The position numbers and the translations under genes were made by a program. The notes beneath the pieces are model-generated. The model saw only the letters and a list, made by a program, of their open reading frames with translations, was not told where the DNA came from and made no database searches. From Planctomycetales bacterium (GTDB lineage Bacteria; 4484-113; JAFGCY01), in contig CP060262.1 of NCBI GenBank assembly GCA_022646745.1, positions 2,010,001-2,042,000 on the forward strand: a DNA stretch of 32,000 nt, written 5' to 3'. Each line of letters opens with the position of its first letter. Position 1 is the stretch's first letter. This document shows, in pieces, positions 3,729 through 25,028 of this stretch.

Positions 3729-3749
3729 CAGTGGTCAGTAGTCAGTAAG
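3729..3749. repeat. Degenerate heptamer tract CAGTGGT CAGTAGT CAGTAAG (GTGGTCA/TGACCAC family)
   Basis: Period-7 repeat read directly from the sequence. It is inverted relative to the tract at 3864-3891. Confidence 0.8.
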
Positions 3750-3787
3750 AGAAGCAGAATGAGAATGAGAAACAGAATCAGAAGCAG
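3750..3787. repeat. Degenerate hexamer tract (AGAAnn)x6: AGAAGC AGAATG AGAATG AGAAAC AGAATC AGAAGC
   Basis: Period-6 repeat read directly. A near-identical tract at 14140-14175 encodes, on the minus strand, the hydrophobic core of a lipoprotein signal peptide. Confidence 0.8.
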
Positions 3788-3863
3788 GTTGTCAGAAACT
3801 GGTAAAGAAGACAACTGACCGCTATCTGCGGCTTCTGTTTCTGCCAACTAATTCTCCTTCTGA

Positions 3864-3891
3864 CGACTGCCCACTGACCACTGACAACTAA
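3864..3891. repeat. Degenerate heptamer tract CGACTGC CCACTGA CCACTGA CAACTAA
   Basis: Period-7 repeat read directly. It is the reverse-complement family of the tract at 3729-3749. Confidence 0.75.
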
Positions 3892-5865: not shown

Positions 5866-7266
5866 TTACTGACCCGTCCCGCCGCTGCGCTGTTCCCGCC
5901 ACTGTGTGCCCTTGCGGCCCTCCAGCGCTGCGTCACCCGTCAGCCTCCGGTAGCAGTCCAGCACCGCGTCCACCGCCCGCTGCGCAGCCCCGCGGTTGCG
6001 CAGGGTCAGCTCCCTGGCCCGCTGCCCGATGCGAATGCGCGCGTCCACGTCCTCCATCAGCGCTGCCAGCCGGCCCGGGGCCTGCCCGGCCTCCGCCTCC
6101 ACCACTGCATCGGAGCGCCTCAGCATCTCCATCTGCGAGGTGATGCCGAAGGTATGCGGCCCGACCAGCACCGGCTTGCCCAGCACCGTGGCCTCGAGGA
6201 TGTTGTGCCCGCCCACCTTCTTGTTGTACGTGCCGCCCATCACCACCACGTCGGCGAAGCGGTACATGTCCACCAGCACGCCGTAGCGGTCCACCAGCAG
6301 CACATCCCAGCCTGGCGCTGGCTTGCCACCACTGCCGGACTTCGCCTTCTTCGACTTGCCCTTGCCGGCCTTGCCCTTCGCAGGCGCAGGCGCCACATCC
6401 GCCAGCTTCACGCATTTCAGCTTGTTGCGCTCGCACAGCTTCTGCACTTCATCCACGCGCTCGATATGGCGCGGCGCGAGGATCAGCCGGGCCCCAGGGC
6501 TGTCCAGGCGCACCTGCGCCAGGCAGTCCAGCACCACTTCCTCCTCGCCGGGATGCGTGCTGCCGGCCGTGATCACCGGCTCGTCCCCCAGCCCGATCGC
6601 CGCGCGCTCGGTGGCCATCCGGCTTTCGCCCCAGTCCTCCAGCTCGAAGTCGAACTTGATGTTGCCGCTCGAAACCAGCTTCTCCGGCGGGATCGCGAAC
6701 TTGATGTAGTTCAGCCAGTGCGTCTTGTCCTGCGTCACGATCAGGTCGCACAGCTCAATCAGCTGCTGCAGGATCACCTTGCGCATGCCGGTCTTGTTGT
6801 GCAGGTACAGCCGCCCGTTCACGAGGCAGACCGGGATCCCGCGCTCGCGGCAGAGCGCTTGGATGTTCGGCCACAGCTCGGCTTCGGTGGTGATGTACAG
6901 GTCGGGGCGCAGCTTGTCGAGGTAGCGCGTCACGGCGCTTGGATGGTCCACCAGCGGGAACCAGGCGACGTATTCCACGAGGCCCGCGAGCTTGCCTTGC
7001 GCCATGGTGCGCCCGCTTTGCGTGGTGGTCAGGAGCACGATGTTGCATTCACCGATCGCCTGGCGCAGCTCACGGATGAAAGACGAGATCGCCACCACCT
7101 CGCCGGCGCTCACCGCATTGATCAGCACGTTCATACCGGGCAGGCTCGGGTCGTAGCCCTCCGGTTCGAAGTAGCCGCGCCGCGCCGCTATCGTGCCGCG
7201 AAAGGGCGGGTAGAGGTACAGGAGCGGCCAGAAGATGCGGACCAGCAGGTTGTAGATGGACAGCAC
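5866..7266 (-). CDS. waaA: 3-deoxy-D-manno-octulosonic acid (Kdo) transferase
   Basis: Blocks match my recollection of E. coli WaaA: LINAVSAGE (cf. HSVSVGE), TTEAELWPN (cf. METELWPN), GSTHPGEEE (cf. TSTHEGEE), LILAPRHIER, and GGHNILEATVLGKPVLVGPHTF (cf. GGHNPLEAAAHAIPVLMGPHTF). The start codon is GTG. Confidence 0.88.
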   Translation of the reverse strand: MLSIYNLLVRIFWPLLYLYPPFRGTIAARRGYFEPEGYDPSLPGMNVLINAVSAGEVVAISSFIRELRQAIGECNIVLLTTTQSGRTMAQGKLAGLVEYVAWFPLVDHPSAVTRYLDKLRPDLYITTEAELWPNIQALCRERGIPVCLVNGRLYLHNKTGMRKVILQQLIELCDLIVTQDKTHWLNYIKFAIPPEKLVSSGNIKFDFELEDWGESRMATERAAIGLGDEPVITAGSTHPGEEEVVLDCLAQVRLDSPGARLILAPRHIERVDEVQKLCERNKLKCVKLADVAPAPAKGKAGKGKSKKAKSGSGGKPAPGWDVLLVDRYGVLVDMYRFADVVVMGGTYNKKVGGHNILEATVLGKPVLVGPHTFGITSQMEMLRRSDAVVEAEAGQAPGRLAALMEDVDARIRIGQRARELTLRNRGAAQRAVDAVLDCYRRLTGDAALEGRKGTQWREQRSGGTGQ

Positions 7267-7272
7267 GGGCTG

Positions 7273-7278
7273 ATTATA
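7273..7278 (-). promoter_or_regulatory. -10-like TATAAT 6 nt upstream of the waaA GTG start (possible leaderless mRNA)
   Basis: The minus strand reads TATAAT-cagccc-GTG. No Shine-Dalgarno sequence is present. Confidence 0.4.
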
Positions 7279-7334
7279 GTGGTGAGTGGTCGGTGGTCAG
7301 TGGTCAGCGGGTTTCGGGTTGCGGGTTTCGGAAT
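7279..7334. repeat. Heptamer tracts: GTGGTGA GTGGTCG GTGGTCA GTGGTCA, then GCGGGTT TCGGGTT GCGGGTT TCGGAAT
   Basis: Strict period 7 read directly. The first half is inverted relative to 7994-8035, and the second half is the reverse complement of the family at 14509-14546. Confidence 0.85.
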
Positions 7335-7343
7335 CACATATTT

Positions 7344-7371
7344 GGGTAGCGGTGGCGCCCTGCGCCAATTG
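7344..7371 (+). repeat. REP element (GTAG + GGCGC-cct-GCGCC hairpin), plus orientation
   Basis: Read directly. GTAG is at 7346-7349. Confidence 0.75.
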
Positions 7372-7416
7372 ATAGTGCATGATGCGAAATTTACAAATAT
7401 GTGATATATTTGCAAT

Positions 7417-7905
7417 ATGTTGCCATTGCAGCCAAAGCTGATGCGTAAGTCCGATCACAACTACCGTACTCCGGGCTACTACTTCATCACGCTGAAGACC
7501 GCTGGCTCACGGAACCTGTTTGGCAGGTATGAAAGTGGCAATGATGTAATCCTGTCACGCTTCGGAAGGATTGCCCTTGAGTGCTGGCACCGTAATGATG
7601 AGGTGTACCAGACCGTAAGCAATGATCTGTATCGCTTCATGCCCAATCACATGCACGCCTTGCTTATGCTGGAATTTGGCGAGAGCACACGGGATGCGGG
7701 AGTACACCTGAGCAAGGTCGTGACATCCTACAAGGGTGTTGTCACAAAGGAAATCCGCAGGTTGACGGGGAATGCGGATATGCAGGTCTGGCAACGGAAC
7801 TACTACGAACGGATAGTCACATCGGAAAGGGCCCTGCAGAACATCCGCAGCTACATTCTCTACAATCCGCTGATGATTGAACTGGAAGGCAAGGGTCTGC
7901 GCTGA
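7417..7905 (+). CDS. rayT: REP-associated tyrosine transposase (RAYT, IS200/IS605 TnpA-like Y1 HUH enzyme)
   Basis: The protein is 162 aa with an HUH motif MPNHMHALL (nt 7648-7656 = H-M-H). It has a C-terminal catalytic-Tyr region WQRNYYERIV and ends in the YILYNPL motif typical of this family. MRKSDHNY at 7441 is an alternative start. Confidence 0.85.
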   Translation: MLPLQPKLMRKSDHNYRTPGYYFITLKTAGSRNLFGRYESGNDVILSRFGRIALECWHRNDEVYQTVSNDLYRFMPNHMHALLMLEFGESTRDAGVHLSKVVTSYKGVVTKEIRRLTGNADMQVWQRNYYERIVTSERALQNIRSYILYNPLMIELEGKGLR

Positions 7906-7947
7906 TTGCCTGAATCCTCAGTCGAGGTAGCCTGGTGCATCCACTCC

Positions 7948-7975
7948 CAGTTGGCGCAAGGCGCCACCGCTACCC
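7948..7975 (-). repeat. REP element, minus orientation (inverted partner of 7344-7371)
   Basis: The plus strand reads CAGTTGGCGCAAGGCGCCACCGCTACCC. CTAC is at 7970-7973. Confidence 0.75.
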
Positions 7976-7993
7976 TGACCCTTGCACCGTTTC

Positions 7994-8035
7994 CATCTGA
8001 CCACTGACCACAGACCACTGACTACTTCCCACTGA
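7994..8035. repeat. Heptamer tract CATCTGA CCACTGA CCACAGA CCACTGA CTACTTC CCACTGA
   Basis: Period 7 read directly. It supplies the last codons (..MVSGK) and the TAG stop (8022-8024) of the anti-sigma-like ORF. Confidence 0.85.
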
Positions 8036-8735
8036 CCATGCTCGCCTTCTTCATGTAGTCCTTCTCGCGGCCGATCAGCGTGATGTCGCTCGGGTTCACC
8101 GCGCCCTTGTCCAGCCACTGCGTCTCCTGCCAGGCGCGCACCACGTTGCGCTCGATCGCGCTCTTGTCCCCCATCCGGTAGGCGATCATGTCGCGCACCT
8201 TCACGCGGTAGGGGATCAGCGGCTGGTCGTAGCTGTAGTAGCAGTCCTGCATCCACTCCTCGCGCTCCATCACGCTGCGGAACCAGCTGTTGGCCTCGGA
8301 GTAGTCCACCCCGATGATGCCGAGCTGCATGGTGTAGCGGCCGTACTCGTTCTCGTAGTAGTCCACCACGAGGCTGTGCCCGCCGTGCTCCGCGAGCTCC
8401 GGGGTGTACTTCGAGATGATGCCCAGCACATGCGGGTAGTTCACCGGCTGGAAGTCCGCCGGCAGCTGGATGTTGATCTGCTGCGCGTCGTCGTAGGGGG
8501 CCAGCGTGAGCGTCGAGCTCCAGGCGCCGACCGCCGCCAGCGCCATCACCAGCACCGCCAGCCTGAAGCCGAGGCGCATGCTGCCCTGCGGACGGCGGCG
8601 CGGCTCCTGCTTCAGCATGTTCTCCAGGTGCAGACGGCTGATCTGCGGGTCGACTTCCTTCTCCAGGCGCTCGAACACGCCGAAGATCAGCTTCTCGGCC
8701 TCGCTCTGGGGGTTCTTATTGAACTCGTTATTCAT
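8022..8735 (-). CDS. Single-pass membrane protein co-transcribed with the ECF sigma factor (putative anti-sigma factor)
   Basis: Its start overlaps the sigma gene stop by 8 nt. It has a cytoplasmic N-terminus, one TM helix (LGFRLAVLVMALAAVGAW) and an extracytoplasmic domain of about 150 aa. No canonical HxxxCxxC zinc motif is present. Confidence 0.6.
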   Translation of the reverse strand: MNNEFNKNPQSEAEKLIFGVFERLEKEVDPQISRLHLENMLKQEPRRRPQGSMRLGFRLAVLVMALAAVGAWSSTLTLAPYDDAQQINIQLPADFQPVNYPHVLGIISKYTPELAEHGGHSLVVDYYENEYGRYTMQLGIIGVDYSEANSWFRSVMEREEWMQDCYYSYDQPLIPYRVKVRDMIAYRMGDKSAIERNVVRAWQETQWLDKGAVNPSDITLIGREKDYMKKASMVSGK

Positions 8736-9333: not shown

Positions 9334-9367
9334 GATAAAGCTGACAGCCTTCCACTGTGCGGGTAAC

Positions 9368-9396
9368 GGAAATTTCCGGAGATTCCGGAAATTTCC
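9368..9396. promoter_or_regulatory. Two perfect 10-bp palindromes GGAAATTTCC spaced 19 bp apart, upstream of the ECF sigma gene (candidate operator/promoter element)
   Basis: The copies are at 9368-9377 and 9387-9396, which is 35-63 nt upstream of the sigma start at 9333. Confidence 0.35.
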
Positions 9397-9402
9397 AGGT
9401 TT

Positions 9403-9509
9403 CAGGGACCTGGGACCTGGGATCAGCAGGTAGCAGGTGCCTGGGTTCAGTAGGGATCAGGTCTCAGGGCGCTTGTATTCGATCCCTGGTCCCCGGTCCC
9501 CGGTACCTG
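9403..9509. repeat. Heptamer tracts of the GGGACCT/AGGTCCC family forming inverted arms
   Basis: The left arm is CAGGGAC CTGGGAC CTGGGAT CAGCAGG TAGCAGG and onward (9403-9470). The right arm is ATCCCTG GTCCCCG GTCCCCG GTACCTG (9482-9509). The arms are imperfect reverse complements. Confidence 0.8.
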
Positions 9510-9551
9510 ATTATAAGGTGCTGGGAGGGGGGAGGCAAGGGGGAAATAGAT

Positions 9552-9579
9552 TTGACAAATGATGTGCTACACTTAGCTT
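9552..9579 (+). promoter_or_regulatory. Candidate sigma70-type promoter for the island gene (TTGACA-N16-TAGCTT)
   Basis: TTGACA at 9552-9557 is a perfect -35 and TAGCTT at 9574-9579 is a weak -10. TATAAG at 9610-9615, 5 nt before the ATG, is an alternative -10. In AT-rich DNA such matches arise by chance. Confidence 0.3.
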
Positions 9580-9620
9580 TTCTCAGCTCGTTATGAATCC
9601 AAGATTACATATAAGATGCC

Positions 9621-12600
9621 ATGAAGTTAACTGATCTTTACACTTTCAATAAGTTTTCAATAAAAGAAGCTGGTCCAAAGTATAGTCCGGGTATAGCTGA
9701 AGGTGCGCCAAATATTGAGATAAACGAGCTTGTAGAATTCTTAGACGCACTCTGTCTAAATGAAAATTTTAAACTAGCATTTAAAACAATTAATAATGAA
9801 CTAACAAATATATCAATTTATCATAGTAGAATCGTAAATGGTCTGTTCTTAAATAACAAGCATACACCAGCAACACTATCTAAATCACTTAGTAAGGTAA
9901 TACAAAGCAGAACAACAGAAAATCTAGAAGCAGAATTATCTCACGCTAAGAGGGCATACACTTTCATATCTAGAAAAATTTCCAATAGACTAAAAGCGGT
10001 AAGGAAAATAGCAAGAGAAAGAGAGCCTAACAACACTAGAGACTCCGAGTATGAAAGATTACAATCGGAAATAAGTGCTTTGAGAGAATACTCCCTAGTT
10101 TCAAACAAACTCAAAGTGTTTTTCGCCGGTGACTATGAACAAGTCATTTTTGCTCAAAACCATATTCTCTTGACAGGAGAATGGGGAACTGGAAAAACTC
10201 ACTTCTTATGCGATATGGCCTTGCGGTATGAAAAGCTTGGGTTACCGGTGTTGCTAGTGTTAGCAAACAACCTAAAAACAGTTAATGATCCCTTTGCTGA
10301 AATTTCAAATCTAGTGAAGATAGAAAAAAATTCTTCAGCTTTCCTAAAGAATTTGAATAAGATTGCAAAGCAGAAGAAAGTTAGAGCCTTGATTTTGCTT
10401 GACGCAATAAATGAGAGCGATAGAAAATACTGGCATCGAAACATGAAATTTATCATCAATACTTTGAAGGCGTACAAAAATCTGCGCCTGGTAGTTTCTT
10501 GTAGAACTCCGTTTGAGGAGCAGATAATTAATCAAAGCACTCAAAGAAAGTTTACAAAGATTAATCATATGGGATTTCAAGATAATGAGTTCAACGCGCA
10601 GATTGAATTCTTCAAACACTATGAAATTCCTCTGTCCTTTGTGCCATTACTTGTTCCGGAGTTTACTAAACCACTTACATTGAAAATGTTGTGTGAAGAC
10701 CTGAAAGATTACTCTACACCTTGGCAAAAGAGAAAATTAAAAATTCTCATTTCAGGGCAGAGAGGAATGACTACAATTTTGGAGAATTATATTGTCAAGA
10801 AGGGTGGAGAAATAGAAAAGAAATTCAGTCTGCCTACAAAATCATGTTGGTTCTTTATTAAAGGAAAGGGCAGCAATTTGGATCTATGTATAGCTGCGAG
10901 GATGGCATCGCAGTCGAAGAGTTGGCTAAAAAGAGATGAAGTGCAACAAATTGCTCAGCAATTTTTTGCGTTCAATAACGATGAATCATCTGCATTTGTT
11001 GCATCACTAATTGAGGGGGGCATTCTAAAAGAAGAGCTCAAATGGGAACCGAATAAATTCGTTGAGGCAATAACGTTTCCATATCAAAGATTTGGTGATC
11101 ATATAATTGCTAGACATCTTATGAACAATTATTTGAATTTAGAATCAGATATTCATATCAGCAGAAGTTTTTATCGAAATCGAGTCTTAGGCAAATTGTT
11201 TTATAGTGAATTCAATAATTATAGTGTTTCAGAGCCAGGACTAATAACTGCAATAATGCTAGAATTACCTGAGAGATTAAAGAAAAGAAAAGGAAAGTCC
11301 GAGCTATTTGCGTTTTTGCCTAAGGACGTTTTGAGGAGAAAAAATGCATTACTAAATCAGTTATTTATAAGTGGTTTGTCTTGGAGAAGCACAGACGCGA
11401 TCACTGAAGAAACTGAAGATAAAATACATATTTTGTTGAAAACCGATGATACATACATAAAGAACTTATGCTTTACAACATTAGTTGGTTTGTGTTTAAG
11501 AGTTAATCACAAACTATCTTCTAAATGGTTGTGGGACTATCTTATTAATTTATCAATGCAAGATCGAGATCTACTATGGTCAGAATTCTTGAGAGATTAC
11601 CAGGGTGTTGAGTCTATAGAGCAGGTGTTTAGTTGGTGTGAAATTAAGAAACATGAATTTGACAAAGAAACTGTACTGCTATTAGTCAATGTCCTATCGC
11701 TGGTATTAACCAGCTCAAACCGACATTTAAGAGATGCTGCCACTAAACAAATCGTTTTGCTAGGCGATCATCAGCCTGAAGTGATTTTTGGTCATATTCT
11801 CAAGTGCATTGAAGTTGAGGATGTTTATATCAGCGAGCGCATGATTGCGGCTGGATATGGAATAGCCATGAGGTGGTGGGGAAAAGCTGATAACCAATCG
11901 CTACGCAAACAGATTTGCAATCTTGCAATCAGTATTGTAGATAGGGTTTTTAGTGACGATTGTGAAAAGAGTGTTTTGCATTCACTTGTATGTAGTTACT
12001 CACGTGGTTTGATAAACATTGCTGCTCAAATTGATCCTTCTTCATTAGAAATTCAAACTCGAGTAATTGATTCTCAAACAAATTCAACTCTATGCTCACC
12101 TTTCCCAAAGAGGAGTAGTATTAGAAATAATATCGAGGAAGTAGTAAGTGATGCAATTCGCATGGATTTTGCTAACTATACTCTTGGTAAACTTGTTCCA
12201 GATCGACGAAATTATGATTTTAGTGACAATAGGTATATTGGATTAAAAAAACAGATTGCCAAGAGGATGCGTGATTTAGGTTATGATCGAGAGATTTTTC
12301 AGTCAATAGATGATGAAATAGGGAGATTTCATACCGGGTACTATCAAGATGAAAAACCGTCTCGAATAGATCGATATGGAAAAAAGTATTCTTGGATTAC
12401 CTACTATGAAATGTTTGAAGTGCTTCATCGGCAGGATCGCTTAGGTTTAGATGAACTGCAATTAACAGATCTCGATATTGATCCGAGTTTTCCTGATGTG
12501 CCTATTTCTTGGATGCCTAAGTTGCAAGTGTATCGCGACGATGGTATTAAGAAAAAGAATGAATGGTTAGTGCGCGGCAAAAGTCCATTCCATACTAATT

Positions 12601-13334
12601 TGTTGTGCAAGCAAATTGTTGACAATTACAGGGGGCCTTGGATATTGTTAGATGCATTCATTGATTTGGATGGAGATGCTAAGCGAAATACAATTTCATT
12701 TATTAATACAATATTGGTTGGCAAGGAAAGTAGGGATACTGTAATTTGTGGATTGTTGAAGAGAGATTATTTGGGAAATGGTTCAATCACTGTAGATGAT
12801 GATGACCACTATGTTTTCGCAGGAGAGGTTCCTTGGTCCACCAAGTTTGCAAGTCATTTGCGTGATGCAAGTGGCGGTGCTATTAGAAAGACTAAAGAAT
12901 TACGTTTTGATCACAATGATCAAAACGTAATTCACGTTGATGTTCCAGTGCACTCGGTAAACTGGGAAGACTATCACAGTTCCGTTAGTACAGGTAGATC
13001 ATACACTACATTAGCCCCACATCTTTCTCAGCTTTTGGATCTCCATTCAGTCAAGGGATCTATAGATTTGTTTGATAGAAAAAATGATTTAGCAACAATC
13101 TATAGAGTGTTTAAATGTAGTGATGATGATTATTTTTATAATCATTTGCTATATGTCAGATCTGATTTGCTGTCGCGATATTTAAATGCAATCAACAGAA
13201 GTTTACTTTGGGTGGTTTGGGGTGAAAGAAGAGTACTTGATGATGATTCCAGATATAATCACTTGATTGCCGAAACATACAGAAGTAACTTGAACAATTT
13301 TTCCAGGTGCTATGAACTCTACTTTAGGTCATAA
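9621..13334 (+). CDS. Large STAND-class (NACHT-like) P-loop NTPase with uncharacterised N- and C-terminal regions
   Basis: This 1237-aa ORF is the only long ORF in the island. The Walker A is GEWGTGKT (nt 10176-10199) and the Walker B is RALILLDAINESD (10383-10421). A sensor-1-like motif LRLVVSCRTP (10482-10511) is followed by MGFQDNEFNAQIEFFKHY. A HEAT-like helical region includes NRHLRDAATKQIVLLGDHQPE. Codon usage is AT3-rich, unlike all neighbouring genes. Confidence 0.9.
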   Translation: MKLTDLYTFNKFSIKEAGPKYSPGIAEGAPNIEINELVEFLDALCLNENFKLAFKTINNELTNISIYHSRIVNGLFLNNKHTPATLSKSLSKVIQSRTTENLEAELSHAKRAYTFISRKISNRLKAVRKIAREREPNNTRDSEYERLQSEISALREYSLVSNKLKVFFAGDYEQVIFAQNHILLTGEWGTGKTHFLCDMALRYEKLGLPVLLVLANNLKTVNDPFAEISNLVKIEKNSSAFLKNLNKIAKQKKVRALILLDAINESDRKYWHRNMKFIINTLKAYKNLRLVVSCRTPFEEQIINQSTQRKFTKINHMGFQDNEFNAQIEFFKHYEIPLSFVPLLVPEFTKPLTLKMLCEDLKDYSTPWQKRKLKILISGQRGMTTILENYIVKKGGEIEKKFSLPTKSCWFFIKGKGSNLDLCIAARMASQSKSWLKRDEVQQIAQQFFAFNNDESSAFVASLIEGGILKEELKWEPNKFVEAITFPYQRFGDHIIARHLMNNYLNLESDIHISRSFYRNRVLGKLFYSEFNNYSVSEPGLITAIMLELPERLKKRKGKSELFAFLPKDVLRRKNALLNQLFISGLSWRSTDAITEETEDKIHILLKTDDTYIKNLCFTTLVGLCLRVNHKLSSKWLWDYLINLSMQDRDLLWSEFLRDYQGVESIEQVFSWCEIKKHEFDKETVLLLVNVLSLVLTSSNRHLRDAATKQIVLLGDHQPEVIFGHILKCIEVEDVYISERMIAAGYGIAMRWWGKADNQSLRKQICNLAISIVDRVFSDDCEKSVLHSLVCSYSRGLINIAAQIDPSSLEIQTRVIDSQTNSTLCSPFPKRSSIRNNIEEVVSDAIRMDFANYTLGKLVPDRRNYDFSDNRYIGLKKQIAKRMRDLGYDREIFQSIDDEIGRFHTGYYQDEKPSRIDRYGKKYSWITYYEMFEVLHRQDRLGLDELQLTDLDIDPSFPDVPISWMPKLQVYRDDGIKKKNEWLVRGKSPFHTNLLCKQIVDNYRGPWILLDAFIDLDGDAKRNTISFINTILVGKESRDTVICGLLKRDYLGNGSITVDDDDHYVFAGEVPWSTKFASHLRDASGGAIRKTKELRFDHNDQNVIHVDVPVHSVNWEDYHSSVSTGRSYTTLAPHLSQLLDLHSVKGSIDLFDRKNDLATIYRVFKCSDDDYFYNHLLYVRSDLLSRYLNAINRSLLWVVWGERRVLDDDSRYNHLIAETYRSNLNNFSRCYELYFRS

Positions 13335-13502
13335 GTGGTTTGGGTGGATTTGCAAATGTTTTATTTCTGTATAGGAAATAGTGTTTTACCTCAGCATGCA
13401 ATTCACAACTAGTCCTGTATATTTACAAGCAGCAATGACTTTTGTTCAAAATAGCACTGATAGTGAAAAATAGCATACTCAATCATTACTTTTATTAGCG
13501 TC

Positions 13503-14222
13503 TCACTCCCCACCGCCATTCGGCGGTTCAATCACCAGCACTGCGGCGCTTGTATTGAAGTCCTGGTAGCTGGCGCGGGCCACATACGTTCCCACCTCGT
13601 CGGGCAGCTGCCAGTTGATTTCAGTGCCGCTTTGCACCGTCAATGATATGACCGCATTGCCGCCACTGTCAAGCAGTGTGCCCGACTCAACCGTGACGCG
13701 GATATCCGGTGGCACAAGCGTGGTGGATGCCCCGCGCCAGGCCCCCGGCAGGGGAATCAGGTAGGGTGTGGCCGTGGCATGCGCTGTATCGGTCGGCGAC
13801 TGGACGTCGTTCGGCGACTGGACGTCGGTCGGCGGCAGGGGTGCCGCCGCTACACTGAGGTGTTCTCCACTGCACCCAGCAACCAGCAACCTGCAAGCAG
13901 TCGGCGACTGGAAGTCGCCGCTACAGTTCCCCGGTCCTAGATCCCTGCCTGCGGTCCCCGGTCCCTGGTCCCCGGTCCCTGCAACGCAGCTTGCAGCCGC
14001 CGATGTCGAGCTGGTCTGCGCGCGTGGGGTGATCGTCACGATGCTGCCGCGCACCGCCGTGGTTGGTGCTTCGAGGATGATGCCGGTCACCGTCACCGGG
14101 TTGGAGGATGCCCCGCCGCCACCGCATGAAGAAGCTGGCAGAAGCAGAAACAGAATGAGAAACAGAAGCAGCAGGGAGGTGAGACAGCGATGAGAGCCTT
14201 GTCTGTTGAGCTTGATGCGCAT
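13503..14222 (-). CDS. Small Ig-like (Big_2-like) lipoprotein interrupted in frame by a REP/short-repeat cluster
   Basis: The track ORF extends to 14282, but the likely start is MRIKLNRQGSHRCLTSLLLLFLILFLLLPASSCGGGG at 14222, with lipobox PASS-C. Beta-rich flanks are VTVTGIILEAPTTAVRGSIVTITPRA and IRVTVESG...GTYVARASYQDFNTSAAVLVIE. The middle ~65 codons (13793-13982) consist of repeat DNA. Confidence 0.6.
   Translation of the reverse strand: MRIKLNRQGSHRCLTSLLLLFLILFLLLPASSCGGGGASSNPVTVTGIILEAPTTAVRGSIVTITPRAQTSSTSAAASCVAGTGDQGPGTAGRDLGPGNCSGDFQSPTACRLLVAGCSGEHLSVAAAPLPPTDVQSPNDVQSPTDTAHATATPYLIPLPGAWRGASTTLVPPDIRVTVESGTLLDSGGNAVISLTVQSGTEINWQLPDEVGTYVARASYQDFNTSAAVLVIEPPNGGGE
13793..13982. 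repeat. Composite repeat cluster: 18-bp direct repeat x2, two GTAG-hairpin REPs (minus orientation) and a GGTCCCC-family heptamer tract
   Basis: TCGGCGACTGGACGTCG(T/G) occurs at 13793-13810 and 13811-13828. One REP, GGCGGCAGGGGTGCCGCCGCTAC, is at 13831-13853. A REP variant, GGCGACTGGAAGTCGCCGCTAC, is at 13903-13924. Heptamers occupy 13927-13982. Confidence 0.8.
14140..14175. repeat. Hexamer tract AGAAGC AGAAAC AGAATG AGAAAC AGAAGC AGCAGG, the second copy of the family seen at 3750-3787
   Basis: Read directly. Its reverse complement encodes LLLLFLILFLLL of the lipoprotein signal peptide. Confidence 0.8.
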
Positions 14223-14284
14223 GGAGGGATGATAACTCATCCAGGGTGCAGGTTGCTGGTTGCAGGGGGCAGGAAAAGTCACTT

Positions 14285-14476
14285 AGTCACTGAGTCAATT
14301 AGTCAATCACCTCCGTTGAGCTATGTTCGATGAGTTTGGTTGACTTATGGACTTATTGACTGAGAGTTCAAGAGTCAACAACTTACGTTTGCGATCAGCT
14401 AGAAGTGAGTGGTTGACTTCTTGACTTAGTGACTGATTGACTTAGTGACTGATTGACTTAGTGACTGCTTGACTGC
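14285..14476. repeat. Octamer/16-mer tracts of the AGTCA/TGACT family
   Basis: AGTCACTG AGTCAATT AGTCAATC lies at 14285-14308. TTGACTTAGTGACTGA occurs three times, plus TTGACTGC, at 14421-14476. Scattered TTGACT copies lie between these two tracts. Confidence 0.8.
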
Positions 14477-14480
14477 GCCC

Positions 14481-14571
14481 GGCGGCAAGGGTGCCGCCGC
14501 TACGCGCTCCGGATACCGAAACCGGAAACCCGAAACCGGAAACCGGTCGGCGGCAAGGGTGCCGCCGCTAC
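14481..14571 (-). repeat. BIME-like cluster: REP, then a CCGAAAC-family heptamer tract, then a second REP
   Basis: GGCGGCAAGGGTGCCGCCGCTAC occurs at 14481-14503 and again at 14549-14571. CCGGATA CCGAAAC CGGAAAC CCGAAAC CGGAAAC lies at 14509-14546. The second REP's CTAC provides the TAG stop of the radical SAM ORF. Confidence 0.8.
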
Positions 14572-16703
14572 GGAAGTTTGCTCGACGCGCCGCCGTCCAC
14601 TTCGCTTTCAGTTCCGCCCGTGCGCTGGATGTTGACAGCGGGCTTCACTCGCACGCCGCCGCTGCCAATCTCCAGTGGTGAGTCCGAGTGTTGTGCGACT
14701 TGCGCCGCACCTCCTTGTGCGACTTGCGCCGCACCTCCCCGATCAAGCTCCTCCGGGTAGACCGGTGAGAAGGGCCGCAGGCCGCGCTGTTCCGCGATGC
14801 CCTGGCGCGCCACCTCGGCGAAGTACTCCTTCAGTTCCTCCGGCACCACGCGGCTCTCCGGGTCGAACACCGGGGCCGCGCAGCCGATGCCGCAGCTGGT
14901 GCACTCCACATGGCAGGCCGGGTTGGCATCGCCGGAGTGGTAGTACTCCCACTCGCGCCACAGGTAGCGCTTGCCAACGCCGCGCGAGATGTGGTCCCAG
15001 GGGAGGGTGTCCGCATACTGCTTGTCCTCGTGCACCTCGCCCTCGAGGTCGAAGCCCCACTCGCTGCAGATGTCCTTCCAGACCGACAGCTCGAAGTTGT
15101 CAGACAAGAGCGTCTGCCCGCGCCGGAAGGCCTCCTCGATGATGCCGGCCACTTCGCGTCCGCCGCGTGACAGGAGCGTCTCCACCACGCCTTCCTCGGC
15201 GTCGTGGTACTTGAAGATGCACTGCCGGCCGTAGCGCTTCAGGAGGTCCAGCAGGCGCGCCTGCTTCTCGCGCGTGATCGCCGTGCGCTCCATGCCCTGC
15301 CACTGCAGCGGCGTATGCGGCTTCGGGATCAGCACCGAGCACGAGATTGTCAACCGTGGGCGGCGGTGCCCCTTCTCCTTCGCCATATCGAAGATCTTGC
15401 CAACCAGCTCGGCGATCTCATCCATCGCCTGCATCGGCTCGCCGGCGAAGCCCATCATGAAGTACAGCTTGAACTTGTGCCAGCCGGCCTGCATCAGCAG
15501 GTCGAATGTGTACAGCACATCCTCCTCGCTGACACCCTTGCGGATCGCACGCCGCGCGGCATCACTGCCGGCCTCGATGGCGATCGTGAGCGAGGTCTCG
15601 CGCGGGCGGCGCATCATCACGGACAGCTCCGCGCTCATGCGGTCAGCGCGCAGGCTGGGCAGGGCCACGCCGACGTCCTCGGGCAGCGCGGCCTTGACGC
15701 TCTCGACGAGCTGGTAGACCTGCGGGTGGTCCAGTGTTGACAGCGACATCAGCGCGACTTCATCCGCGCCGGTCTTGTTGATCAGCTCGACGGCGGCCTT
15801 CGTCAGGTCCTCCACGGTGCGTGCACGCGCCGGCCGCGTGATGTAGCCGGCCTGGCAGAAGCGGCAACCCTGCGGGCAGCCGCGCATCACCTCTAGGTAG
15901 ACCTTGTCGCTCGGGATCTCGATGAAGCTCTGCACCGGGTTGAGCGGCGGCATGCTCATCGCGAAGTCCTTCGCATAACCGCGCTTGACGCGCAGCGGCA
16001 TGCCATCGCGGCTGGGGCGGGTGCGCAGGTGTTTGCCCGCCTCGTCATATTCACATTCATAGAAGCGCGGCAGGTACACGCCCTCGATGTCGCGCAGGGC
16101 GTACAGGCGCTCCTCGCGCGGCAGGCCCTTCGTGGCCTTCAGGCTGTCGATGATCTCATCGAGGATGCTCTCGCCCTCGCCGTTGACAACCACGTCGAAG
16201 AAGGGCGCGATCGGCTCGGCGTTGCACATGCACTGCCCGCCGGCGATCACGATCGGGTCGTCGTCGCTGCGCTCGAGGCTGCGCAGCGGGATGCCGGCCA
16301 GGTCGAGCACCAGCAGGCCGGAGGGGTAGGCCATCTCGAAGGTGAAGGAGATGCCAATCGCGTCGAACTCACGCAGGCTGCGCTTGTTCTCAAGGCTCCA
16401 CAGGGCGACGCCCTTTTCTCGCATCATCTCCTGCATGTCGGGGCCGGGCACGAAGCTGCGCTCGCAGAGGCAGTCCTCGCGGCCGTTGATGTGCTGGTAG
16501 ATGATCTCCCGGCCGTGGTAGCTCATGCCGAGCTCGTAGAGGTCGGGAAAGACGTAGCAGAAGCGGAAGTCCACCGAGTCCCAGTCCTTGCGGATCTGGC
16601 CGAGCTCCTCGCCGATGTAGCGCGCGGGCTTCTGCACGAGGCGCAGGTCCGGGCGGATCAGGCGCTCGAAGTCGGACGGGGAGTGGTGTGTTGCATTCTG
16701 CAT
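14568..16703 (-). CDS. B12-binding-domain radical SAM protein of a widespread uncharacterised family (TIGR03960-like from memory)
   Basis: It carries a CPQGCRFCQAG (CxxxCxxC) cluster motif. The N-terminus reads VQKPARYIGEELGQIRKDW...FPDLYELGMSYHG...DDPIVIAGGQC..NGEGE, typical of that family. The last ~60 codons (14568 to about 14760) are encoded by repeat DNA and may not be ancestral. Confidence 0.88.
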   Translation of the reverse strand: MQNATHHSPSDFERLIRPDLRLVQKPARYIGEELGQIRKDWDSVDFRFCYVFPDLYELGMSYHGREIIYQHINGREDCLCERSFVPGPDMQEMMREKGVALWSLENKRSLREFDAIGISFTFEMAYPSGLLVLDLAGIPLRSLERSDDDPIVIAGGQCMCNAEPIAPFFDVVVNGEGESILDEIIDSLKATKGLPREERLYALRDIEGVYLPRFYECEYDEAGKHLRTRPSRDGMPLRVKRGYAKDFAMSMPPLNPVQSFIEIPSDKVYLEVMRGCPQGCRFCQAGYITRPARARTVEDLTKAAVELINKTGADEVALMSLSTLDHPQVYQLVESVKAALPEDVGVALPSLRADRMSAELSVMMRRPRETSLTIAIEAGSDAARRAIRKGVSEEDVLYTFDLLMQAGWHKFKLYFMMGFAGEPMQAMDEIAELVGKIFDMAKEKGHRRPRLTISCSVLIPKPHTPLQWQGMERTAITREKQARLLDLLKRYGRQCIFKYHDAEEGVVETLLSRGGREVAGIIEEAFRRGQTLLSDNFELSVWKDICSEWGFDLEGEVHEDKQYADTLPWDHISRGVGKRYLWREWEYYHSGDANPACHVECTSCGIGCAAPVFDPESRVVPEELKEYFAEVARQGIAEQRGLRPFSPVYPEELDRGGAAQVAQGGAAQVAQHSDSPLEIGSGGVRVKPAVNIQRTGGTESEVDGGASSKLP
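14691..14738. repeat. Perfect 24-bp tandem duplication TTGTGCGACTTGCGCCGCACCTCC x2 inside the 3' tail of the radical SAM ORF
   Basis: Read directly. It encodes GGAAQVAQ twice on the minus strand. Confidence 0.85.
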
Positions 16704-16712
16704 GGACTGGAC

Positions 16713-16718
16713 ATTCTA
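16713..16718 (-). promoter_or_regulatory. -10-like TAGAAT 9 nt upstream of the radical SAM ATG
   Basis: The minus strand reads TAGAAT-gtccagtcc-ATG. No SD is present, and the site lies just downstream of the terminator of the preceding gene. Confidence 0.4.
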
Positions 16719-16747
16719 ACGGATGCGCTGCCCATCGCAGAAAACGG

Positions 16748-16782
16748 AAACGGCGGGCAGCATCGCTGCGTACCCGCCGTTT
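16748..16782 (-). terminator. Rho-independent terminator after the small lipoprotein gene
   Basis: A 10-bp stem AAACGGCGGG/CCCGCCGTTT has a 15-nt loop. On the minus strand it is followed by the T-rich TTCCGTTTTCTG. Confidence 0.55.
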
Positions 16783-16803
16783 GGTGTGTCCATTGTCGTG
16801 TTG

Positions 16804-17172
16804 CTAGTCGCTCTCGGTCTGCATGTACGAACGCACGGCGTCGTTGGTGATCTTGATGCTCTGGTTCGTGTTGAAGGTATCCTCGCCGGCGATGCTCTTC
16901 TTGCACATCTCAAGCACTTCCTTGGCGCGGATGTAGGAACCCTTCTTGCCGAAGTCCTCCTCCCACTTGGTGAGCACGCCCTCCAGCTTGTCACAGTTGC
17001 GCTGCTCAATGGCGCCCTTGGTGTTGATGTCGTTCTCGATTGCGGCAAGCGATGACAGAAGCTCGGTCTTGTAGCGGCCGTGCCCGGAGGTGCCGGGGAT
17101 GGAGCAGCCGCTGATGTGGACGCCGAGCAGGAGCACCGCAAGCGCCAGAATGGACATTTTCATGATCTTCAT
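16804..17172 (-). CDS. Small helical lipoprotein, function unknown
   Basis: The likely start is MKIMKMSILALAVLLLGVHISGC (lipobox ISG-C), preceded by the SD AGGAGAGGAAGC. The longer track ORF (to 17253) adds an Arg-rich extension that overlaps the promoter region. Confidence 0.7.
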   Translation of the reverse strand: MKIMKMSILALAVLLLGVHISGCSIPGTSGHGRYKTELLSSLAAIENDINTKGAIEQRNCDKLEGVLTKWEEDFGKKGSYIRAKEVLEMCKKSIAGEDTFNTNQSIKITNDAVRSYMQTESD

Positions 17173-17203
17173 GCTTCCTCTCCTGGGTGGTAAAGACCGC
17201 AAG

Positions 17204-17232
17204 ATTGTAGCGGTTGAAATTGCCCTGCGCAA
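17204..17232 (-). promoter_or_regulatory. Candidate sigma70 promoter TTGCGC-N17-TACAAT for the small lipoprotein gene
   Basis: The hexamers and 17-nt spacer were read from the minus strand. The -10 lies about 32 nt upstream of the ATG. Confidence 0.4.
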
Positions 17233-17254
17233 ACCCCCCGCCGGACTTTGCACC

Positions 17255-17260
17255 TATAAT
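17255..17260 (+). promoter_or_regulatory. -10-like TATAAT 17 nt upstream of the thioesterase ATG
   Basis: TATAAT was read directly. I found no convincing -35 element. Confidence 0.35.
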
Positions 17261-17277
17261 CTGCGGCAGGCCAGGCT

Positions 17278-17769
17278 ATGGAAAGAACAAGGGAAATACG
17301 CAGGGCAGAGCCCCTGGAAACATTTGAAGTGGTCTTCCCGCAGGACCTCAACCCGATGAATACCATGTTCGGCGGTGCTGTCGTGGCACTGATGGACAAG
17401 GCGGCCGGGATCGTGGTCAGCCGCTGGGCGCGCCGCGTGGCGGTCACCGCCAGCATCGACGCGATCCAGTTCCTCACGCCACTGCGCCAGGGGCAGATGA
17501 TCGAGATCCACGCGCAGGTGGCCTACGTCGGCAAGTCGAGCTGCATGGCCCGGGTGCAGGTCTGGGGCAATGACATCGGCTCCGGCGACCGGCACTTCTG
17601 CTGCGAGGGCTTCTTCACGATGGTCAGCATGGACTCGAACTTCCGTCCGGTGGCGCTGCCGATGATCCCGGTGGAGACGGAGGAGGAGAAGCAGCTGTGG
17701 GACTACGCGCGGCATATCAAGCAGGCGATGCTGGAGCGCCGTGAGCAGGCCCGCCAGATGGCCGAGTAA
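17278..17769 (+). CDS. Acyl-CoA thioesterase, hotdog fold (YciA/BFIT-like)
   Basis: The sequence FPQDLNPMNTMFGGAVVALMDKAAGIVVSRWARRVAVTASIDAIQFLTPLRQGQMIEIHAQVAYVGKSS matches the hotdog thioesterase core pattern. Confidence 0.8.
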   Translation: MERTREIRRAEPLETFEVVFPQDLNPMNTMFGGAVVALMDKAAGIVVSRWARRVAVTASIDAIQFLTPLRQGQMIEIHAQVAYVGKSSCMARVQVWGNDIGSGDRHFCCEGFFTMVSMDSNFRPVALPMIPVETEEEKQLWDYARHIKQAMLERREQARQMAE

Positions 17770-17794
17770 CCCGGCCTGCATGGGGTCGTCCCTG

Positions 17795-17800
17795 TATAAT
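17795..17800 (+). promoter_or_regulatory. -10-like TATAAT 10 nt upstream of the operon's first ATG
   Basis: The sequence reads TATAAT-cggagcaggc-ATG. The spacer also contains GGAG, so a short SD-bearing leader is equally possible. Confidence 0.3.
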
Positions 17801-17810
17801 CGGAGCAGGC

Positions 17811-19202
17811 ATGAGCATTGAAGCCAGCAGCACGGGTGCAGCGCCGCAGCCGATGGGTGATACCGCCCCCGGCCGGGTGAGGCCGCGCAGCCGCGGCTAT
17901 GTGATTGGCTCCATCGTGGTGGTCAGCGTCTGCCTGCTGTGCATGCTGCTGTTCGCCTACCTGTTCAACCGCCCGCGGCCAGACAGCGGCACGCGCATCT
18001 GGCTCTTGAACCATACGCCGGACCAGGTGGTGATCTACAACCCGCATGACGGCGTGCCGGAGAAGAAGTTCCAGGTGGCGGATGGCCTGAGGGGCCTGAC
18101 ATTCTCGCGTGACGGCACCAGCGCCTACGTCTTCAACGTGGTGGACGTCGTCAACAAGTTCACGAAGATCGACACCGCGACCTACCTCAAGGAGGAGAGT
18201 GTCGAGGTGGACGGTGTGCCGCAGGGCATCGGCACCTTCCCGGACGACGCTGAAGTGGCGGTGATCACCGGCTCCAAGACCACCGGTGAGGCCGGCGGCT
18301 TCGACGTGCTGAGCATGACCGAGAAGAGTGCCGCCGACCCGGGCAAGCAGAAGCGCCTGTGGCGTGTGCGCGACCTGCAGATCACGCACAAGATCGCGGT
18401 CAGTGACGACGGCGGGCGGATCTACCTGCTGGATGCCAAGAGCGAGTACCTGACGATCTACGACTACCCGAACCAGAAGCAGCTCAGGCAGGTCAGCCTG
18501 CATGGTGCCGCCGAGCAGTTCCTCTACCCGAACACCGGTGACTACTACTACATCTCCGTGCTGCAGCACAATGCGATCTACCAGTTCCGCAAGTCTGACG
18601 ACGAGATCAACGCGGCCTACATCTACAGCTATGCCGACCCCGAGAAGAGCTACCACAACATCAAGCTGCGCTACATGGATGTTGACAGCGAGGGCAAGTA
18701 CCTGTTCGCCACCTGCTACGAGGCCAAGACGGTGGCGGTCTGGGAACTTGGCAACCCGGACTACATGCGCCAGTCCGATGAGGTGCGCCTGCCGGTCGGC
18801 CCGGACCAGAAGGGCTACCTGTGGGAGGGCCTGCCCTATTACATGCCGGCCTACCGCTTCGGCCTGAAGGGCGGCTATGAGGAACGCCTGAGCTACGTTC
18901 CGGGCGGCGAGCGCGTTGCAGTGGACCCGGCCGGCGCCTTCCTGACCATCAATGACGACGAAGGCGCGCTCTACATCTACTACCTGTATGACATCTACAA
19001 GGAAGTCAGCAAGCATGAGCCGATCCCGGACATTGCACCGCGCCTGCAGGACCTGCCGGTGATCGAGCCGCACAAGATCATCACGGACCTCGTGCGCAAG
19101 GGCGGCGGTGACGTGGAGATCCGCGACCTGAAGATCGCCATCCCGCGCGTGCGCAACCGCAGGGATGCCGCGGCCGCGGAGCAGGACGGTGTGATCGAGT
19201 AA
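17811..19202 (+). CDS. Membrane-anchored YVTN-type beta-propeller protein
   Basis: It has an N-terminal TM anchor (YVIGSIVVVSVCLLCMLLFAYLF). Repeated blade-like segments include DGTSAYVFN, DDGGRIYLLDAKSEYLTIYD, SEGKYLFATCYEAKTVAVWE and PAGAFLTINDDEGALYIY. Confidence 0.75.
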   Translation: MSIEASSTGAAPQPMGDTAPGRVRPRSRGYVIGSIVVVSVCLLCMLLFAYLFNRPRPDSGTRIWLLNHTPDQVVIYNPHDGVPEKKFQVADGLRGLTFSRDGTSAYVFNVVDVVNKFTKIDTATYLKEESVEVDGVPQGIGTFPDDAEVAVITGSKTTGEAGGFDVLSMTEKSAADPGKQKRLWRVRDLQITHKIAVSDDGGRIYLLDAKSEYLTIYDYPNQKQLRQVSLHGAAEQFLYPNTGDYYYISVLQHNAIYQFRKSDDEINAAYIYSYADPEKSYHNIKLRYMDVDSEGKYLFATCYEAKTVAVWELGNPDYMRQSDEVRLPVGPDQKGYLWEGLPYYMPAYRFGLKGGYEERLSYVPGGERVAVDPAGAFLTINDDEGALYIYYLYDIYKEVSKHEPIPDIAPRLQDLPVIEPHKIITDLVRKGGGDVEIRDLKIAIPRVRNRRDAAAAEQDGVIE

Positions 19203-19636
19203 TGGACTCGCTGCAGGTCACCGTGTATGAGGGGCGCATCCCGGCGATGATCCTGCTCGCGGTCTACCTGGCGGCGGTGGTTGTGCTGTTCCCGCGCGAG
19301 ATGAAGTTCCTGCGCGAGGTGCAGAATGCGACCACCCGGCGCATCTTCATCGTGCAGGACATCTTCATCCAGGTCTGCATCCTCGGCGTGCTCGTGCCCG
19401 CGATCCTGATGAAGGGCGTCAATGAGCAGAATGACAAGCTGCTCGGCCTGCTCCTGATCCTGTCGATGACCGGGCTGTGGCTGTGCGTGATCTGGGCCGG
19501 CTGGTCGCGCTACATCTATACCTGTCGTATACTCAGTGAAGGCAGCAAGCGCAGTGCTGAAGAGCTCAGGCGCATCCAGGAGCTGCTCCGACAGAAGGGA
19601 ATAGATACGGACGAGATAAAGGATGTGGATGCCTGA
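19202..19636 (+). CDS. Small integral membrane protein (about 3 TM helices), function unknown
   Basis: Its ATG overlaps the upstream TAA (TAATG). It has hydrophobic segments and a charged C-terminal tail. Confidence 0.7.
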   Translation: MDSLQVTVYEGRIPAMILLAVYLAAVVVLFPREMKFLREVQNATTRRIFIVQDIFIQVCILGVLVPAILMKGVNEQNDKLLGLLLILSMTGLWLCVIWAGWSRYIYTCRILSEGSKRSAEELRRIQELLRQKGIDTDEIKDVDA

Positions 19637-20159: not shown

Positions 20160-20201
20160 AACCACTGGACGGCAGGCTACGTCACAAGAGACGAGGAAGC
20201 A

Positions 20202-20600: not shown

Positions 20601-20633
20601 ATCCGGTTCTCCGATACCCAGCCAGCGCGAGCG

Positions 20634-21536: not shown

Positions 21537-21668
21537 GCTGTCTTAAAGTGACTGGCCCGAAAGACTGCTGGTTGTCCCGCGGCATGTTTGCCCGCATATG
21601 CCGCCGAAACCTAATGTCATTGAAATCCGTAGTACCGCTGTTCCTCAAGCGCGGGAACAGGACAGCGC

Positions 21669-23328: not shown

Positions 23329-23398
23329 GGCCTTGTCCCCCGGATTGCAAGCTGACTGAGTTTATCAGACAGTGCTCAGGGCTGGCATTTATTCTGAA

Positions 23399-23577: not shown

Positions 23578-23629
23578 AACTGCTTGATGAAGACTGTTGC
23601 CAGACCCTCGTCATGCCCCGGTCGCTTTG

Positions 23630-23671
23630 CCATTCCATGGGAATGGCCTCCTGTCAGGCCATGGGCCTGAC
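23630..23671. repeat. Twin short hairpins, each with an ATG loop
   Basis: CCATTCC-atg-GGAATGG is at 23630-23646. GTCAGGCC-atg-GGCCTGAC is at 23653-23671. Confidence 0.7.
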
Positions 23672-23682
23672 CTCCCTAAACC

Positions 23683-25004: not shown

Positions 25005-25013
25005 GCAGGAGAG

Positions 25014-25019: not shown

Positions 25020-25028
25020 GTGCGGGGA

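Follow-up and report, generated by a model that had tools for sequence, protein, structure and literature searches.

A 32,000-nt stretch of the genome of a Planctomycetales bacterium (GenBank assembly GCA_022646745.1, contig CP060262.1, positions 2,010,001 to 2,042,000 of the forward strand; hereafter the window) contains an island of low-GC DNA at 9546-13502, which carries a single large gene whose product belongs to a family of anti-phage STAND NTPases already described, Avs2 (AVAST type 2). The G+C content of the island is 35.7%, that of the remaining window 62.3%; measured over 300 nt at a time, it drops from 0.59-0.68 to 0.31-0.41 across about 9545-13500, and the switch is complete within a few bases at either edge. 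An earlier note on this DNA had described such an abrupt island with one open reading frame (ORF); both edge strings quoted there are present, and the ORF listing and translation confirmed that the ORF at 9621-13334 (plus strand, 1237 aa, ATG start) is the only one of at least 80 aa that spans the island. An in-frame stop lies 9 nt 5' of its ATG, and it is overlapped by two short antisense ORFs of 91-92 aa and no others. Its G+C content at third codon positions (GC3) is 0.31, compared with 0.89 for the adjoining radical SAM gene 1 kb away. On re-examination the island, as had been said, contained no integrase, tRNA or partner gene: no tRNA was found in the window, and no second gene, integrase or Rfam element at the island. 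The AT-rich tail is also present, with a length of 168 bp instead of the 165 bp first given; no Rfam family or structured RNA was found in it, and its folding is not unusual. A DNA search of plasmids gave no match, and protein searches of plasmids and phages returned distant Avs2 proteins only, with 24-27% identity.

Contig L015 (Logan SRR17907852), which comes from a separate assembly and read set, covers positions 9443-13895 at 99.93% identity. Since this independent contig spans both junctions of the island, the junctions are real. It differs from the window at three positions, each a 1-nt deletion beside a homopolymer; the frameshift that the contig carries is therefore probably a read error.

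We next consider the identity of the 1237-aa protein. Pfam returned sub-threshold P-loop matches only (AAA_22, NACHT and nSTAND3; aa 177-322), the NACHT match (PF05729) reaching 19.6 bits against a gathering cutoff of 26.7 (E = 8.9e-4), and no usable match came from scanning the N-terminal, central and C-terminal parts separately. All six Avs2 models of PADLOC matched the protein (best PDLC02164, E = 4.8e-158, aa 13-859), with positions 182-331 of the Avs2 profile aligned with aa 12-165; the C-terminal 387 residues alone also matched the profile (aa ~877-1215, positions 1118-1471, E = 5.4e-26). The NCBIfam model NF041813 (AVAST type 2 anti-phage system protein Avs2) scored 465 bits (E = 5.6e-139), aa 14-840 aligning with positions 1-797 of 1317. 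In a sequence search of the PDB, the sole significant match was 9o4e (EcAvs2; E = 1.2e-58), covering residues 135-832 plus C-terminal segments. BLASTP against the Avs2 protein of a Rhodothermus marinus plasmid, named as such by the NCBI annotation pipeline PGAP, showed a colinear relationship, in which residues 13-804 correspond to 175-942 and residues 875-1206 to 1147-1492. The earlier note had proposed a NACHT-clade STAND NTPase, possibly of an undescribed family, with about 900 residues in which no domain could be named. A STAND NTPase of the Avs kind it is, with only a sub-threshold Pfam score behind the label NACHT; the idea of a new family falls with the PADLOC run that the note itself had suggested and with the NCBIfam, 9o4e and Rhodothermus matches. 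The unnamed residues are the helical, TPR-containing sensor of Avs2 and its beta-rich C-terminal terminase sensor, as follows from the C-terminal fold match given below and the shared sensor described by Evans et al.

The domain layout is given in Table 1. An AlphaFold2 (AF2) model of residues 1-1200, built with 105 homologues, has a mean predicted local distance difference test score (pLDDT) of 88.5 and a predicted TM score (pTM) of 0.88, and predicts, in this order, an all-helical N-terminus (3-176), an NTPase of alpha/beta type followed by helical and winged-helix modules, long helical repeats and a beta-rich C-terminus. The Walker A, Walker B and LVVSCRTP motifs recognised earlier are all in place and fall on invariant or near-invariant columns; G186, G189, G191, K192, T193, D261, N264, E265, C294, R295 and P297 are invariant across the 105 homologues. 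In the loop motif at the start of the core, the clade alignment shows A17, G18, Y21 and P23 to be near-invariant and P30 and N31 invariant. When modelled alone, the C-terminal domain gave a pLDDT of 89 and a pTM of 0.89. A Foldseek search with this model against the PDB found only 8DGC, the complex of SeAvs3 with the PhiV-1 terminase (E = 4e-8, probability 1.00, TM 0.51, 294 columns), and the next match had an E value of 0.2. The Foldseek comparison that had been proposed for a model of the protein was thus informative for the C-terminal domain, which matches the sensor of SeAvs3; the whole chain gave generic AAA+/STAND matches only (Cdc6/Orc1, NLRC4, Avs4 and NRC2), because the structure library, which runs to April 2026, does not contain 9o4e. 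These models show that the C-terminal domain has the fold that binds the ATPase domain of the terminase in Avs2 and Avs3.

Table 1 Coordinates in the window of the island, its boundaries and the regions of its gene.
Feature	Position	Strand	Basis or remark
Low-GC cargo	9546-13502	.	Composition profile; boundaries from L001 alignment; L015 spans both junctions, 99.93% identity
Avs2-family STAND NTPase gene, 1237 aa, of the effector-less clade	9621-13334	+	PDLC02164, NF041813, 9o4e; from residue 13 on, colinear with the Rhodothermus Avs2
N-terminal all-helical extension, aa 1-176	9621-10148	+	AF2 helices 3-176; equivalent to the EcAvs2 helical extension between effector and ATPase; no effector before it
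Loop motif SIKEAGPKYSPG...APNIEI, aa 13-34, start of the Avs2 core	9657-9722	+	Aligns to AINSAGPRYTPK, residue 175 of Rhodothermus Avs2
Nucleotide-binding domain, aa 177-320	10149-10580	+	Translation; invariant motif residues; weak Pfam AAA_22/NACHT/nSTAND3
Walker A GEWGTGKT, aa 186-193 (K192)	10176-10199	+	
Walker B LILLDAINESD, aa 257-267	10389-10421	+	
Sensor-1 LVVSCRTP, aa 290-297	10488-10511	+	
STAND-core helical and winged-helix modules, aa ~321-535 (approximate limits)	10581-11225	+	AF2 secondary structure; EcAvs2 alignment
TPR-like alpha-helical sensor region, aa ~536-940	11226-12440	+	AF2 all-helical; alignment extends to residue 958 of EcAvs2 and to residue 942 of Rhodothermus Avs2
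Beta-rich C-terminal sensor domain, aa 941-1237	12441-13331	+	PADLOC profile E = 5.4e-26; AF2; Foldseek 8DGC
AT-rich non-coding tail of the cargo	13335-13502	.	168 bp; no ORF of note; no Rfam family; fold z-score +1.24
Proximal boundary, at the 3' end of ORF 13503-14282 (flanking gene)	13503-13700	-	Alignment A1; C-terminal 65 aa 83% identical to L001
Distal boundary motif TTGCCTCCCCCCTCCCAGCACCT	9516-9539	-	20/23 match to TTGTCTCCCCCCTACCGGCACCT in L001 17788-17810, distal Gabija edge
Left copy of weak 23-nt direct repeat flanking the cargo	9468-9490	+	Partner 13545-13567, 83% identity; 4/500 shuffles reach the score; marginal

The characterised Avs proteins put this architecture in context. 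Avs2 proteins are activated by the large terminase of a phage, or by proteins of the Ksap type, and tetramerise in an ATP-dependent manner. EcAvs2 consists of an effector, a helical extension, an ATPase, a TPR region and a C-terminal sensor; this last part, to which the ATPase domain of the terminase binds, is common to Avs2 and Avs3 (Evans et al. 2026, PMC13601566); EcAvs2 buries 2833 Å2 of the terminase, places a bridging ATP in its active site and partly unfolds the nuclease domain. The window protein has the same order of helical extension, STAND NTPase, TPR region and beta-rich sensor, with K192 equivalent to K348 of EcAvs2. However, EcAvs2 has 1484 aa including a non-enzymatic N-terminal effector of ~160 aa that the window protein lacks, the identity is low, and the residues that contact the bridging ATP are not evidently conserved. 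Most Avs2 proteins have Mrr-like nuclease effectors; they and KpAvs2 (Bechon et al. 2024, PMC11564622), in which the N-terminal Mrr nuclease is essential and K71A abolishes defence, share the NTPase and C-terminal sensor family and, like the window protein, are single large proteins in defence islands. KpAvs2 differs in forming an operon with a radical SAM protein (Avap1) and DUF6375 (Avap2). The window gene is without a nuclease. The Avs2-trypsin-MBL system of Vibrio cholerae (bioRxiv 10.64898/2026.08.25.746987) has the same terminase-sensing, tetramerising core, but uses a two-step effector made up of a fused N-terminal trypsin and a separate gene for an MBL nuclease, neither of which is in the window. 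SeAvs3, the sole significant structural match in the PDB, shares the C-terminal sensor fold. Its TPR architecture is different, it carries a Cap4-like nuclease at the N-terminus and it is ~2000 aa long, with no significant sequence match to the window protein.

What sets the window protein apart is its N-terminus. Its homology to canonical Avs2 sets in at residue 13, and the N-terminal effector of ~160-175 aa by which Avs2 proteins are described (Mrr-like nuclease, EcAvs2-type, trypsin or others) is absent; two PGAP-named Avs2 proteins of 1532 and 1497 aa have 174 and 159 extra N-terminal residues, respectively. No domain has been inserted elsewhere, as the part of the protein after Walker A is shorter than in canonical Avs2. 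The stop just upstream of the ATG, together with the same architecture throughout the clade, shows that the missing effector is not due to truncation of this copy. Among the 120 closest homologues, 112 have Walker A at residue 160-220, and in 105 aligned members the AGPRY core start follows after 0-47 residues, mostly 12-25. When 1.84 billion representatives were searched exhaustively, there were 2945 matches, 1284 of them at E<=1e-30, and the N-terminal length was surveyed in the best 150 representatives, 99 of which were full-length with a Walker A motif. Short N-termini (Walker A at 150-239) were found in 80 of these 99 proteins and filled the top ranks; the other 19 had long ones (Walker A at 278-371), and all of them except P0181 scored below ~340 bits. 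In a neighbour-joining tree of the shared core, 20 of 21 long-N proteins fell into one clade with a single short-N protein.

The long N-termini resemble PD-(D/E)xK nucleases (…DGVEF…WQAKFY…), which agrees with the Mrr-like nucleases of most Avs2 proteins. As a positive control, Pfam was applied to the N-terminal domains of long-N Avs2 relatives and missed them, and a PDB sequence search with one long N-terminus found nothing; because of the failed control, the silence of Pfam on the window protein is uninformative, and the assignment as effector-less draws on length and colinearity only. The clade has a mean column identity of 46% and 75 invariant positions, including all NTPase motifs, and comprises at least 80 clusters at 50% identity from several phyla, at times on mobile elements. 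Where its members have public names at all, these are 'hypothetical protein'. In the published Avs2 descriptions compared, which do not extend to Gao et al. 2022, N-terminal effectors are always present and required. Overall, these comparisons indicate that the protein represents a sizeable, unannotated branch of Avs2 that consists of the core only, namely helical extension, NTPase, TPR region and C-terminal sensor. As a side observation, P0181 (1355 aa) is the one clade member among the top ranks with an extension, of ~105 residues, before the AGPRY core start, which places Walker A at 291; the extension has no Pfam domain and could be a rare re-acquired effector or an adaptor.

The gene neighbourhoods of clade members were surveyed at seven loci, a small sample for which no statistics are given. 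In line with what would be expected of a defence gene on the earlier note's proposal, six of them contained genes for type I or MmeI restriction-modification (RM), AbiE, McrBC, Gabija-like or HepT/MNT systems, integrases or recombinases, or a TrwC relaxase, while the seventh (L013) had metabolic genes. One homologue lies on an IMG/VR element that also encodes a serine recombinase, ParB/RepB and type I RM. No gene recurred beside the clade members in the seven neighbourhoods, and the neighbours were homologous neither to one another nor to anything in the window. Stand-alone Trypsin_2 genes occur ~1-3.5 kb from effector-less Avs2 genes at two unrelated loci (L005, 13146-13853, minus strand; L020, 10594-11421, plus strand); no homology between the two was detectable, and none was found in the window. 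The radical SAM gene at 14568-16703 was considered as an Avap1-like accessory and rejected, since it belongs to the syntenic core in relatives without Avs2 and its proximity is coincidental.

This radical SAM gene led to two close relatives of the window, L001 (JAGRNT010000001, 90% amino-acid identity) and L004 (JAWLAZ010000006, 88%), both metagenome-assembled genomes (MAGs) labelled UBP7 or unclassified, and the locus was compared in these three genomes. Positions 13508-27337 of the window are syntenic with L001 1-14004, and the homology (alignment A1, 88.6% identity) reaches the last sense codon of the flanking gene, with the cargoes diverging from the stop codon on. The right boundary of the island (13502/13503) therefore coincides with this stop codon; the left boundary lies at ~9540-9546 by the same comparison with the sister genome L001. 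The product of the flanking gene (13503-14282, minus strand) is signal-peptide/lipoprotein-like with a repeat-rich, variable middle; conservation with L001 is confined to the C-terminal 65 residues, and the gene is absent from L004. It is a fast-evolving surface protein beside the hotspot. At the same place, L001 carries a cargo of ~3.8 kb with 34-40% G+C, which is a complete Gabija system (14158-17746, G+C 0.38) of two overlapping genes for GajA (601 aa, E = 1.2e-205) and GajB (606 aa, E = 4e-214). The distal motif (Table 1) occurs once in the window, where 0.03 copies are expected, and once in L001; related strings adjoin the stop of the NAGPA gene in L001 and L004. A third low-GC cargo, at L004 14639-15736 (minus strand), is an ORFan of 365 aa (G+C 0.40, GC3 0.36) that lies directly against the NAGPA-domain gene also found downstream in L001. 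The ORFan had no match in Pfam, PADLOC, PHROG, NCBIfam or the PDB and no homologue but itself among 5.8 billion proteins; its position in the hotspot makes it a candidate new defence gene. All three cargoes (Avs2, Gabija and ORFan) have a GC3 of 0.30-0.36. Past the distal motif the window has no synteny with its relatives, an ECF sigma operon standing where they have the NAGPA gene.

These results are best explained if the island is a defence cassette of one gene, acquired horizontally, in a cargo-swapping hotspot that extends from the 3' end of the surface-protein gene to a short conserved motif. The view of the gene as a mobile immunity gene is thereby supported by its foreign composition, by Gabija between the same boundaries in L001 and by homologues near defence genes; the presence/absence polymorphism suggested as a check is seen in the Gabija and ORFan alleles. 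Defence-island hotspots with interchangeable cargo, such as those of P2/P4 satellites and core genomes, are known. The present locus resembles them in that fixed flanks carry interchangeable cargo of low GC relative to the host; it differs in having no integrase or satellite backbone beside the cargo. The flanking direct repeats (Table 1), considered as att sites, are a single 23-nt pair of marginal significance, which lies off the exact edges and whose score is reached in 4 of 500 shuffles. A metagenome scan for further hotspot alleles found no close relatives.

Several other features were observed at the locus and its counterparts. Heptamer/REP repeats beside the island had been pointed out before, and they are there; a transposase gene among them had gone unmentioned. 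This gene, a RAYT-like REP-associated Y1 transposase at 7417-7905 (plus strand; Pfam Y1_Tnp; NF047646 E = 1.5e-15, below cutoff), lies 1.6 kb left of the island in a patch of ~52% G+C (7251-8053) and is bracketed by a 38-nt inverted repeat (7344-7381 and 7938-7975, 87% complementary) as well as by inverted arrays of the heptamer AGTGGTC (7278-7307 and 7997-8038). A second inverted AGTGGTC pair is found at 3730-3743 (plus) and 3869-3889 (minus), with 9 matches in the window where 0 are expected. Tandem heptamer/octamer arrays occupy GC-rich intergenic DNA at 3730-3889, 9367-9504, 13872-13979 and 14242-14546; their units, which include GGGACCT, TCCCCGG, CGGTCCC, CCGGAAA and TTGACTTA, resemble short tandemly repeated repetitive sequences. 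In L004, a GC-rich ORF of 249 aa beside the ORFan cargo (13825-14574, minus strand) has a PD-(D/E)xK-like signature (…VDIIASDARGRSVVIENQFGDSDHKHLGQ…) and no Pfam match, and is absent from the window and L001. A more distant relative, a MAG labelled Planctomycetales (L003), has a stretch of 0.44-0.48 G+C at ~500-3000, some 7 kb upstream of its radical SAM gene.

As for the state of the window copy, its nearest relatives among the 5.8 billion proteins are 36-37% identical, apart from the one near-identical contig. The protein keeps every invariant residue of the clade and matches ~88% of the highly conserved columns, of which the other members match 97% on average and never less than 90%. Its deviations are of the AT-bias type (R to K, A to T/S/I, G to N/E, P to T/L/V) and mostly conservative. 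The sampled clade members belong to genomes of 53-68% G+C and have a roughly host-like composition, so the AT-rich donor lineage is unsampled.

How might such a protein act? Judging from EcAvs2, KpAvs2 and SeAvs3, its TPR and C-terminal domains would bind the ATPase domain of the phage large terminase, and this binding would drive ATP-dependent tetramerisation. The absence of a killing domain leads us to propose that the ATP-locked tetramer would itself be the effector, trapping the terminase in a form unable to package DNA; immunity of this kind would be stoichiometric and non-abortive. Taken jointly, the identity as Avs2, the sensing of terminase and the status as a cassette are probably correct. 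Terminase trapping as the output step is a speculative proposal to which we give somewhat less than an even chance. Several points weigh against this picture. Nuclease-dead KpAvs2 still binds its target and yet gives no protection, which is the main counter-evidence to trapping, and removal of the effector ended cell death in 13 Avs families, which speaks against simple sequestration. The EcAvs2 residues T1128, R1130 and R1132 of the bridging-ATP site show no visible conservation in the window protein, where they align with a variable loop of low model confidence. The scan for promoters and terminators gave counts no better than shuffles and no consensus promoter 5' of the ORF. The window protein is the most divergent member of the clade and may have lost some function, and every function assigned here to the effector-less clade is a predicted one. 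As to the naming and novelty of the clade, the score of 465 bits stays below the NF041813 equivalog cutoff of 1000 bits, so that PGAP would leave the protein unnamed as Avs2, which fits the 'hypothetical protein' labels, and Gao et al. 2022 may already list Avs2 proteins without N-terminal domains.

The leading alternative to terminase trapping is a sensor-only receptor, which would oligomerise on a phage protein and signal via an effector encoded elsewhere, either a co-assembling helper STAND protein, as in NAIP/NLRC4 and plant NLRs, or a host factor recruited by the tetramerised N-terminal helices. Sensor NLRs without a signalling domain of their own are found in NAIP-NLRC4 and in plant sensor/helper NLR pairs; like the window protein, these are STAND receptors with a ligand sensor and no executioner domain, but they are eukaryotic and their helpers are known. 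Such a receptor would account for a clade that is large and conserved although it has neither an effector domain nor a conserved neighbour, and it agrees with the requirement of characterised Avs proteins for an effector and with the use of host EF-Tu or DnaJ by Avs7 and bNACHT25. The Trypsin_2 genes near the L005 and L020 members are suggestive as well, trypsin being known as a fused Avs2 effector; however, these two genes are not detectably related, the window has none, and no candidate partner was found in the island or recurring over the seven neighbourhoods. Moreover, a single-gene cassette moving between phyla would lose a specific partner encoded in trans. We regard the sensor-only reading as unlikely, though by some distance the strongest of the alternatives. 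In broader terms, the clade may be a widespread natural group of bacterial NLR-like receptors without an executioner, acting by direct neutralisation of the terminase or as sensors that feed a trans-encoded helper, a possibility that we hold only tentatively and rank slightly above the sensor-only reading.

The remaining explanations concern the copy, the contig and the family rather than the output. The gene might be an inert or decaying passenger, an Avs2 remnant silenced or non-functional in its host: its composition is extremely mismatched (GC3 0.31 vs 0.89), its ORF lacks an upstream consensus promoter, its match to conserved columns is the lowest in the clade and L015 carries a frameshift. 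Nevertheless, a 3.7-kb ORF has stayed intact in AT-rich DNA, where stops arise easily, all invariant motif residues are retained, the start of the ORF agrees with that of the clade, the L015 differences are 1-nt deletions at homopolymers as typical of read errors, and the substitutions are mostly conservative and of the AT-bias type, which makes decay improbable. An assembly chimera or contaminant, that is, a low-GC segment joined to a GC-rich contig during metagenome assembly, would explain the abrupt switch in composition, and the relatives are indeed metagenome-assembled; but L015, from a separate assembly, covers both junctions, and the other low-GC cargo of the sister genome starts at exactly the same stop codon and ends at the same motif, leaving this explanation with hardly any weight. 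Equally slight is the chance that the protein founds an undescribed NACHT-like STAND defence family, as first proposed. The sub-threshold Pfam P-loop and NACHT matches, the 'hypothetical protein' labels of all close homologues and the merely 36-37% identity of the nearest relative would fit such a family; it is already contradicted by strong homology along the full length, both to Avs2 models and to the solved structure of an Avs2 protein, and by a C-terminal fold specific to Avs2/Avs3.

In the scheme established for characterised Avs proteins, a sensor drives STAND oligomerisation, which activates a fused toxic domain, and removal of that domain abolishes function. A large, conserved and horizontally mobile clade with neither such a domain nor a linked partner departs from this scheme. 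Provided that its members are active, either target capture alone would protect the cell, giving immunity without suicide, or bacterial STAND sensors would signal in trans. Should the sensor-only reading be true, the clade would be a bacterial counterpart of the sensor/helper NLR networks. Because the NCBI Avs2 model leaves these proteins unnamed, surveys that rely on it undercount Avs2. Finally, the locus offers a clean example of cassette exchange, with Avs2, Gabija and an ORFan as the exchanged cargoes, in an uncultured candidate phylum.

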